From Escherichia phage SaltyDalty: DNA of 36,900 bases. Below, piece by piece: positions 60-685 of the stretch. Made by a program: the position numbers and the translations under genes. Numbering within the stretch: position 1 is the stretch's first letter; each line of letters begins with the position of its first letter. The stretch is from sequence record PP925825.1; one strand, written 5' to 3'. The notes under the pieces are model-generated. The model did not search any database, had not been told where the DNA came from, and saw only the letters and a list, made by a program, of their open reading frames with translations.

Positions 60-353
60 TCATGGCTTGTCTAAAAATTCTCTCAGAGCTTCCGATTTAT
101 TGCATGAATCTTTATTAATCGTCATCCCTGCCTCTTTTTGCTTTTGACAGAAATAGTAGTAATCATCGTTTGTTTTTATATAGCCCATGAATTTAAAAAA
201 AGCCTTTTTACACAATTCAGGATTTGCATGATCAGAGCAAATCGTAGACGTATAGCTTTGCAAATCATTTGGTTCTAATGGAGCCAGTGTTTGAGTTGCA
301 TTTGAAACACAACTGAAACCAAAAAATAATACAAATAAGACTAGTTTTTTCAT
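60..353 (-). CDS. Small secreted or lipoprotein-like cysteine-containing protein of unknown function (moron)
   Basis: ORF 60..410; signal-peptide-like MKKLVLFVLFFGFSCVSNA begins at the internal Met (codon at 351-353) preceded by GGTGAAGG; four Cys in the mature part; locally AT-rich compared with flanking tail genes. Confidence 0.55.
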   Translation of the reverse strand: MKKLVLFVLFFGFSCVSNATQTLAPLEPNDLQSYTSTICSDHANPELCKKAFFKFMGYIKTNDDYYYFCQKQKEAGMTINKDSCNKSEALREFLDKP

Positions 354-406
354 TGCCTTCACCAAATCATTAAAAAAAATAATCCTATTATTTTGTAGTT
401 CATTTG

Positions 407-685
407 TCACTGAGTTGCAGCTGTAAGTGCAGCCTCAAGTCCTGCAAACTGGTCCTTCGGTTCTGATTGCTCATCACCACCCCAGCGCAGGATCGCATCG
501 TCCAGCGGTACTTTTGCCCCCTGCGAGCCGTAGATGGCAGAGACGAGCTGAGCTGCCTGAATGTCACCACGAATATCGCCAACCGGACTTTGCCTGTCGT
601 ACTCAATCCACATCAGAAGCTCGCTTGCCGTCATATTCTGCCGAAGCTCTGAGAGCGTGCGCCCCATCCGGAGCGCAAGCGACAT
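407..685 (-). CDS. Tail assembly chaperone T-like segment, probably made as a G-T fusion by -1 frameshift
   Basis: T frame stays open across the 3' end of the upstream G-like ORF (VSTPGVKFL precedes the first Met); sits in the conserved position between tail tube and tape measure. Confidence 0.55.
   Translation of the reverse strand: MSLALRMGRTLSELRQNMTASELLMWIEYDRQSPVGDIRGDIQAAQLVSAIYGSQGAKVPLDDAILRWGGDEQSEPKDQFAGLEAALTAATQ

Follow-up and report, generated by a model that had tools for sequence, protein, structure and literature searches.

What is a small, AT-rich gene doing between the tail assembly genes and the tape measure gene of a phage? The question is raised by Escherichia phage SaltyDalty (sequence record PP925825.1), of which a stretch of 36,900 nucleotides (nt), called here the window, was analyzed. 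In this phage, such a gene lies between the frame for tail assembly protein T and the gene for the tape measure protein (TMP). Judged from its sequence, the gene is a moron cassette in the slot that gene 15 occupies in phage HK97, that is, the T-TMP junction. It encodes a precursor of 97 amino acids (aa), and its product is a predicted signal peptidase I substrate, soluble and exported rather than a lipoprotein. The most likely function, which we put forward tentatively, is superinfection exclusion of some kind in the periplasm. The protein family was previously undescribed and is annotated nowhere; the kind of element (moron) and the slot were already known.

The earliest moron to be described was gene 15 of HK97, which separates the chaperone genes from the tape measure gene. 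Its product, gp15, is a prophage-expressed superinfection exclusion protein of the inner membrane, and the exclusion depends on the tail region of the incoming phage. The late-region morons of lambdoid phages also include proteins that do not act in exclusion, such as Bor (serum resistance) and Lom (adhesion) (PMC3594210). The features of the cassette in the window, followed by its neighbors, are as follows.

60..353, minus strand: coding sequence of the 97-aa precursor, identified from the ratio of nonsynonymous to synonymous substitutions (dN/dS), an identical Enterobacter protein, and homologs starting at the equivalent Met.
297..353, minus strand: predicted signal peptide MKKLVLFVLFFGFSCVSNA, with KK in the n-region, a hydrophobic core, and the cleavage motif S-N-A.
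63..296, minus strand: mature domain of 78 aa, a predicted helical bundle with four invariant Cys, from alignment and an AlphaFold2 (AF2) model.
356..363, minus strand: Shine-Dalgarno-like sequence GGTGAAGG upstream of the ATG, which aligns with AAGGAGG of HK97 gene 15.
382..387, minus strand: -10-like hexamer TAGGAT, at a constant 17-nt spacing from the -35-like hexamer across cassettes.
405..410, minus strand: -35-like hexamer GTGACA, found by scan and conservation, which overlaps the T stop TGA (407-409).
17..43, minus strand: predicted intrinsic terminator, with an 8-bp stem AAAAGCCC/GGGCUUUU, a 6-nt loop, and a U-run.
8..11, minus strand: GGAG ribosome-binding site of TMP, the right-hand boundary of the cassette, where homology resumes at the T-run and CGCCTGGAG in the alignment.
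407..685, minus strand: tail assembly protein T frame, the left-hand neighbor (PF06223, E 2.8e-20); the homology of relatives stops at its stop codon.
694..1077: chaperone G (PF06222).
34102..36900, minus strand: TMP gene, truncated (932 aa; PF06120 and PF20155), the right-hand neighbor over the circular junction.

The window is a circularly permuted phage genome. Its break falls exactly between the TMP ribosome-binding site and the TMP ATG, which is the final base triplet of the window (36900-36898, minus strand) and starts a product beginning MATLRELIIK. The small gene and TMP are not adjacent in the linear coordinates of the window but are adjacent across the circular junction. Read as the reverse complement of 1..480, the order is the end of T (...ATQ, TGA 409-407), a 53-nt spacer, the ATG (353-351), the open reading frame (ORF) of 97 codons with its stop TGA (60-62), the hairpin and U-run, CGCCTGGAG, and the window end. 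In Aeromonas phage AsXd-1, the same junction is unbroken at 30752/30753: 34109..36900 of the window corresponds to 27961..30752 of AsXd-1, and 1..8262 corresponds to 30753..39014. Because AsXd-1 carries this junction contiguously, the gene lies between T and TMP. The GC content of the gene is 0.327 and that of the spacer upstream of it is 0.245, compared with 0.554 in the 1 kb upstream and 0.524 in the 1 kb downstream. The small AT-rich gene that the initial annotation placed between T and TMP was thus borne out by both its composition and the AsXd-1 junction.

A six-way DNA alignment was made of the window, AsXd-1, HK97, two Escherichia coli prophages, and Enterobacter phage LAU1. Beyond the T stop the sequences are unrelated, and they become homologous again from the terminator T-run and the TMP ribosome-binding site onward. 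At this place HK97 carries a gene annotated as "Gp15, moron product", followed by a putative terminator. The slot was then surveyed in 80 IMG/VR contigs, in which T shares 97-99% identity with the T protein of the window. It was occupied in 80/80 contigs, each time by one of six unrelated cassettes.

Cassette A, 25/80, the commonest: a 111-aa protein with two transmembrane segments and a C-terminal zinc ribbon (phrog_8436).
Cassette B, 14/80: a 113-aa lipoprotein (phrog_2320).
Cassette C, 10/80: gp15/YebO (PF13974, 1.2e-9).
Cassette D, 13/80: the present four-Cys family.
Cassette E, 11/80: a 121-aa lipoprotein (phrog_27124/914).
Cassette F, 7/80: the Cor superinfection exclusion lipoprotein (phrog_1119, E 1.2e-30).

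All six cassettes have a GC content of 0.32-0.44, against flanks of about 0.55, and their products are membrane proteins, lipoproteins, or secreted proteins. Each ends in a hairpin and T-run adjoining the TMP ribosome-binding site. Gp15/YebO and Cor are known exclusion proteins, and the other four families are uncharacterised. Differing cassettes were found beside upstream flanks that are 100% identical and TMP segments that are 98-100% identical. Different cassettes with identical flanks indicate that the cassettes are exchanged independently of both neighbors. Over the first 500 nt of TMP, contigs with the same cassette type had an identity of 0.91 and those with different types one of 0.79, with values up to 0.98-1.0 among the latter. 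In one contig with the Cor-type slot (L050), the slot is 1630 nt long, compared with about 565 nt in the others, and the end of the Cor ORF differs.

Comparison with relatives lacking the insert showed that lambdoid phages whose T is about 63% identical (L140, L143, and L204) carry an empty junction. In these phages, 34 nt hold the T stop, a GC-rich hairpin with a T-run, the ribosome-binding site, and the TMP ATG. The gene is therefore extra DNA between otherwise adjacent genes, as the empty slots and the alternative cassettes both show, and its base composition deviates from its surroundings, as does that of all its homologs and of the six cassette types. The initial annotation regarded the position as unusual and the AT-richness as a sign of recent acquisition. 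The position proved to be the canonical HK97 gene-15 moron slot, filled in all of the close relatives surveyed. Homologs at a synonymous divergence (dS) above 1 are equally AT-rich and occupy the same slot, so AT-richness does not imply recent acquisition. The further idea of a horizontally exchanged AT-rich cassette for an exported Cys-containing protein was supported.

The ORF was compared pairwise with six homologs, and dN/dS ranged from 0.06 to 0.32, with synonymous sites saturated in several pairs. Substitution patterns of this kind indicate that it is a real gene under purifying selection. The exact 97-aa sequence has been deposited repeatedly in NCBI as "hypothetical protein" from Enterobacter hormaechei, E. 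kobei, E. roggenkampii, and E. asburiae, and close variants occur in Citrobacter freundii. The motif GGTGAAG of the Shine-Dalgarno-like site is retained in the C. freundii homolog (L007) and in the D-type variants. The initial annotation had placed the gene at 60-410; the stop at 60 was confirmed, but the start at 410 gave way to the conserved ATG at 353.

The longer form, which is also the annotation in AsXd-1, would be a 116-aa protein starting at a GTG (410) that overlaps the T stop, translationally coupled to T. The frame is open from 410 in the window and in AsXd-1, the GTG overlap is real in both, and the 116-aa form is the representative of its 90% cluster. However, this GTG belongs to the conserved end of T and also occurs before unrelated cassettes. 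The distance from GTG to ATG is 61, 56, and 58 nt in the Leclercia (L006), C. freundii (L007), and Klebsiella-phage (L008) homologs, which puts the two codons out of frame there. In close variants (L025 and L042), single-base indels in the T-run of the spacer shift the upstream frame, and the frame or start of the extension is altered in close variants that read MNCKRIG... and MILVKA.... A ribosome-binding site precedes the ATG and none precedes the GTG, and 10 of the 15 cluster members listed from NCBI and other sources are annotated at 97 aa. In addition, a polar extension of 19 residues would bury the signal peptide. Because the GTG is part of T, the frame is not conserved, the T-run carries indels, and the GTG has no ribosome-binding site, the extension is best seen as an accident of the SaltyDalty genome. 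We consider the 116-aa protein highly improbable. Translational coupling to T and the GTG-initiated ORF were rejected, as the frame is not conserved among homologs.

The precursor starts MKKLVLFVLFFGFSCVSNA|TQTL, with a signal peptide of 19 aa and a mature part of 78 aa. The signal peptide was judged by rule and by conservation. The leader has KK at residues 2-3, a hydropathy maximum of 3.1 over residues 4-12, and S-N-A before the cleavage site. It thus shows what Sec export and signal peptidase I cleavage call for, namely an n-region that is basic, a core of 10-15 hydrophobic residues, and small side chains at -3 and -1. In alignments of 11 and 19 members, every member of the family has a leader of the signal peptidase I type, and the Ala at -1 is nearly invariant. 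In the same alignments, four Cys at mature positions 20, 29, 50, and 65 are the only invariant residues after Met1; His23, Asn43, Asp45, Lys52, and Arg72 are nearly invariant. The secreted protein with a signal peptide and four Cys in its mature part, as first described from the window, agrees with these data. An AF2 model of the mature domain built from 19 sequences gave four helices (9-19, 26-44, 46-55, and 62-75) with a pLDDT of 88 and a pTM of 0.69. The Cys occupy the ends of two helix hairpins in this model, and from this placement we infer that disulfides 20-29 and 50-65 would form in the periplasm.

A fifth Cys, Cys15, sits within the signal peptide, and the protein had initially been called lipoprotein-like. 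Under this reading, signal peptidase II would process the product at Cys15, yielding a lipoprotein of the outer or inner membrane comparable to Cor or Llp. The leader residues FGFSC, as read from the sequence, satisfy the permissive PROSITE-style lipobox pattern, [LIVMFWSTAG](2)-[LIVMFYSTAGCQ]-[AGS]-C. Three other slot cassettes encode lipoproteins, with the clear lipoboxes ISAC, IAGC, and LSGC. Gly at -3 and Phe at -2 are nevertheless poor lipobox residues. Moreover, one member (P0006, LIPISNA) has another residue in place of Cys15, and no leader of the distant subfamily or the Klebsiella-phage branch contains this Cys, whereas the -1 Ala of the SNA/ANA/ASA motif is nearly invariant. Because the leader Cys is not conserved and the -1 Ala nearly always is, the product is predicted to be a substrate of signal peptidase I. 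With no conserved lipobox Cys, the bacterial lipoprotein reading was rejected, and the chance that it is correct appears very small.

A scan found a sigma-70-like arrangement, GTGACA-17-TAGGAT, at 410..382, which matches 9/12 of the consensus positions. The Leclercia, C. freundii, and Klebsiella-phage homologs retain the pattern GTGAC[AT]-17-TA(GG/GC/TT)AT despite differing spacers, and the Klebsiella-phage spacer is entirely different. The same arrangement, with a -35 element built on the T stop codon, is common to four unrelated cassette types (A, B, D, and E). Cassettes C and F are preceded by a TAA stop and by other upstream sequence. RNA structure was tried as the reason for the conserved TAGGAT and rejected: the 5' region showed no conserved or unusually stable fold, and its weak folds were no better than those of shuffles. 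Conservation across homologs and across cassettes A, B, and E, together with the lack of an RNA fold, makes a slot-resident promoter likely. Since the promoter-like unit is common to four cassette types, the cassettes seem to recombine on their left at a boundary downstream of the -10 element.

The hairpin terminator reported in the initial annotation was also found, and it is predicted at 17..43. Its stem is formed by 43-36 and 29-22, with the loop at 35-30 and the U-run at 21-17, and the surrounding 75-nt region has a folding energy of -17.9 kcal/mol (z = -2.3). This hairpin was missing from the output of the pattern scan; our guess is that the maximal stem consumes part of the T-run. An equivalent hairpin and T-run closes every homolog and every other cassette type. 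The moron therefore has a predicted terminator at its end, although a hairpin is also present in the empty slots, so the terminator may be a part of the junction and not of the cassette. As the empty junctions still carry a hairpin with a T-run, a terminator between the chaperone and TMP genes may be ancestral to the site. The hairpin and T-run of the empty junctions (L140 1440-1475, L143, and L204) closely resemble those after HK97 gene 15.

Searches with the single protein, with each member, and with profiles gave nothing significant in Pfam, PHROGs, NCBIfam, PADLOC, or PDB. There was no match to PF13974 at E <= 1, where the gp15-type cassette scores 1.2e-9, and no PHROG match at E <= 0.01, hence none to phrog_1119 (Cor). 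The initial annotation had named a periplasmic inhibitor as a candidate role, but no lysozyme inhibitor (Ivy, MliC/PliC, or LprI) or other family was matched in Pfam, NCBIfam, or PDB. A resemblance to the plant pectin methylesterase inhibitor (PMEI)/invertase inhibitor proteins, which share four Cys, a first pair C-x8-C, and a helical fold, was rejected as subthreshold and without structural support. The matches (TIGR01614, E 0.086; PDB 1x90, E 1.7) cover just the leader and the first C-x8-C, and the resemblance was taken for a chance or leader-driven match.

The family is small. Searches of 5.8 billion and 1.8 billion proteins yielded 23 clusters (90% identity) and 13 representatives, respectively, all from Enterobacterales. 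The representative genomes of GTDB contained no homolog of the close subfamily and two prophage copies of the distant subfamily. In 38/38 assessable IMG/VR loci, the TMP ATG follows the moron stop by 51-61 nt. The same placement next to TMP was found in Leclercia sp. W17, C. freundii, and Klebsiella phage ST13-OXA48phi12.2 (50% identity). Members at 25-40% identity belong to siphophages with an unrelated DUF6246 chaperone, and the gene still lies in the interval from chaperone to TMP. These distant members come from Salmonella, Citrobacter koseri, Pantoea, Lonsdalea, Pseudocitrobacter, and a metagenome. In Salmonella, C. koseri, Pseudocitrobacter, and the metagenome, they directly precede TMP; one more small gene stands in between in Pantoea, and Bro-N and ORF6N genes do so in Lonsdalea. 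Among the members found, there was no copy outside phage tail operons.

In Pantoea sp. A4 (L010 4954-5000 and 5286-5387), two successive small genes before TMP each have their own upstream hairpin. Both carry the ribosome-binding motif GGGGATAGGG(A/G)T immediately before the ATG, and this motif also precedes the family member in the Salmonella and C. koseri prophages. From these sequences, the Pantoea pair looks like tandem cassettes with a common translation-initiation module.

What could such a protein do? Generally, the expression logic of lambdoid morons is that described by Juhala et al. 2000 and Cumby et al. 2012, as summarised in PMC3594210. Sequence and comparison show the cassette to consist of a putative sigma-70-like promoter on the T stop, a leader of about 20 nt with a ribosome-binding site, the 97-aa ORF, and a predicted terminator adjoining the TMP ribosome-binding site. 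By analogy with those morons, it would be transcribed alone in the lysogen while the flanking late genes are silent, and during lytic growth, antiterminated late transcription would read through it. The product would be exported by Sec and cut by signal peptidase I after SNA, and the remaining 78 aa would fold in the periplasm as a helical bundle held together by two disulfides. This soluble periplasmic protein may then interfere with the entry of related siphophages. It could affect the tape-measure-mediated crossing of the periplasm and inner membrane, or else a component on which that step relies, whether periplasmic or a receptor.

We believed that superinfection exclusion, which the initial annotation had also named, is the best-supported candidate role because two of the five other cassettes in the exact slot, gp15/YebO and Cor, are known exclusion proteins. 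Within this role, the tape measure step would be the most attractive target, as the family adjoins TMP in unrelated tail modules and the exclusion by gp15 depends on the incoming tail region; even so, a mechanism directed at the tape measure is doubtful. The most far-reaching form of the proposal is that the protein is the first soluble periplasmic exclusion protein of Gram-negative siphophages, which acts on the tape measure step, for example by binding the ejected TMP or a periplasmic factor that TMP requires, and is linked to TMP through matched specificity. In that case, the T-TMP junction, with a promoter and terminator of its own, would serve specifically for the exchange of at least six interchangeable envelope proteins that tune phage entry into the lysogen. 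Taken as a whole, we regard this form as improbable.

Several points weigh against a role in exclusion as laid out above. The protein does not resemble gp15, Cor, Llp, Ltp, or any PADLOC model in sequence. The argument from slot sharing amounts to guilt by association, and four of the six cassette types are uncharacterised. Exclusion is also not the only function on record for late-region morons of lambdoid phages, Bor and Lom being the examples (PMC3594210). Promoter-like sites with such a match are only about three times commoner here than expected (3 in 1.2 kb, compared with 1.1 from shuffles), so that the site upstream of the gene is weak evidence when taken alone. The linkage to TMP is just partial, given the 0.91 identity within and 0.79 between cassette types and the values of 0.98-1.0 reached between types. 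Cassette type is also unlinked to the receptor-binding end of J, since the D cassette is missing from all 20 phages that have the J C-terminus of the window, and these carry other cassettes or none. A linkage of the cassette to this end of J was accordingly rejected.

The chief competing explanation is that the protein promotes host fitness, as Bor and Lom do: it would be a lysogenic-conversion protein of the periplasm that has nothing to do with phages and sits in the slot merely because the slot tolerates insertions. Envelope stress tolerance, protection against lysozyme or peptides, binding of metals or ligands, and an inter-bacterial role can all be imagined. The precedents of Bor and Lom among lambdoid late-operon morons favor it (PMC3594210), the polar near-invariant residues His23, Asn43, Asp45, Lys52, and Arg72 would fit any ligand- or protein-binding site, and four of the six slot cassettes are without a known role. 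Against this stand the missing matches to Ivy, MliC/PliC, LprI, and other Pfam, NCBIfam, and PDB families, and the finding that both characterised cassettes of the slot are anti-phage. Furthermore, every member found lies in a siphophage tail operon near TMP, and never in a chromosomal non-phage context. A host-fitness role is rather unlikely, though it deserves to be taken seriously.

The position within the late operon, in the same orientation and with no terminator between T and the ORF, would also suit an accessory protein of the lytic cycle made mainly by read-through of late transcription. Late in infection, such a protein could mask a receptor or entry factor and so keep the progeny from being lost to lysing cells or debris, or it could modulate lysis or the envelope, and the hexamers would be no functional promoter. 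In a metagenomic homolog (L014), the spacer is 11 nt long and has no promoter-like sequence. Receptor blocking by prophage proteins that preserves progeny is mentioned in a passage of PMC12952977, cited there as Taylor et al. 2025. However, the -35 and -10 elements are kept at a fixed spacing across diverged homologs and unrelated cassettes, and HK97 gp15, from the same slot, was reported to be prophage-expressed (PMC3594210). Most close relatives lack the gene, which makes it dispensable for the lytic cycle. We believed that a lytic accessory role has little chance of being correct, and superinfection exclusion by the prophage was kept as the preferred candidate.

If the protein does act in exclusion, it would add a new, very small, and easily testable family to the barriers that prophages of Enterobacter, Citrobacter, Klebsiella, and Salmonella set against phage entry. 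Phage therapy is under development against these bacteria, and the prophages they harbor restrict the host range of phages. The strict association with TMP across unrelated tail modules would offer a handle on the periplasmic stage of siphophage DNA entry, which is poorly understood. The most useful by-product is the slot survey: six interchangeable envelope cassettes in near-identical phages are a natural experiment on which envelope steps are blocked. Should the protein have no anti-phage role, its gene would join the other uncharacterised genes for lysogenic conversion and be of modest interest.

Some further observations concern the genome around the cassette. Relative to AsXd-1 and all other relatives, the window has a deletion of about 2.9 kb at 33461-34110. 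TMP is 932 aa long here, compared with 1084-1194 aa in relatives, and is without Tape_meas_lam_C. The window has no genes M, L, or K, and of gene I it lacks the N-terminal part: 33779..34048 encodes just the C-terminal 75 residues of gpI (64% identity to AsXd-1 I 120-194). Unless the deletion is an assembly artefact, the tails of this phage should be defective. AsXd-1 (MH178096.1) is 94% identical to the window over the head and tail-shaft module (window 1..8262). The moron protein of the window is otherwise found in Enterobacter and Citrobacter prophages, and an integrase is encoded at 25022..26407 of the window. It seems doubtful that AsXd-1 is lytic, as it was described, or that its host is Aeromonas.

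The major tail tube protein (window 1086-1529) has 147 aa, compared with 234 aa for gp12 of HK97. Tube homologs in the Leclercia and C. freundii loci L006 and L007 have 237 and 234 aa, respectively, with an immunoglobulin-like domain. PGAP labels the equivalent tube genes of Escherichia coli prophages (L001 5733-6152; L002 5694-6113) as "incomplete, missing C-terminus". Within this group of phages, a short tube protein that lacks the decoration domain seems to be a common variant. A Cor homolog (49-66% identity) lies just downstream of J in 7/20 slot-visible loci that share the J C-terminal domain of the window (L142, L152, L155, L170, L201, L204, and L206, around 11100-12280); the window has no cor. 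As a Cor homolog often stands directly downstream of this J, the arrangement suggests that the J type of the window uses a receptor blocked by Cor, which is FhuA in known cases.

Among known systems, Ltp of Streptococcus thermophilus phage TP-J34 represents a family of surface lipoprotein exclusion factors (PMC3952083). Like the moron protein, Ltp is a small, extracytoplasmic, all-helical prophage protein, and it is proposed to stop DNA injection after adsorption. Bebeacua et al. are said to have identified the tape measure protein as its target in 2013. Ltp differs in its Gram-positive host, its lipid anchor, its helix-turn-helix repeats, and its place in the lysogeny module, and no sequence or fold match between the two proteins was found. 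As an analogy, Ltp is a plausible functional counterpart for a periplasmic blocker of the tape measure step. Bor and Lom of phage lambda are likewise encoded by AT-rich single-gene cassettes in or next to the tail cluster, and their exported products are prophage-expressed. They differ in position, in family (a lipoprotein and a beta-barrel), and in their non-phage phenotypes.

Cor, the outer-membrane lipoprotein of the phi80/N15/HK022 type that blocks FhuA, is closer. It is also a small exported prophage protein with conserved Cys, and it occupies the same slot in 7/80 contigs. In contrast to the moron protein, which has neither a conserved lipobox nor a phrog_1119 match, Cor has a canonical LSGC lipobox and a non-helical sequence. 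In relatives with the J type of the window, cor is mostly found downstream of J, outside the slot. Compared with HK97 gp15, the products differ: gp15 has 62 aa, belongs to PF13974, and keeps an uncleaved N-terminal transmembrane helix, whereas the moron protein has 97 aa, a cleavable leader, and a soluble four-Cys domain. The gp15 cassette has a TAA stop and other sequence upstream, and gp15 has chromosomal homologs (YebO), of which none was found for the four-Cys family. The slot, however, is exactly the same, from the T stop to the TMP start, and so is the architecture: AT-rich, with its own terminator adjoining the TMP ribosome-binding site and a single small envelope-targeted ORF. In phages whose T is 97-99% identical, gp15 is an alternative allele of this slot.

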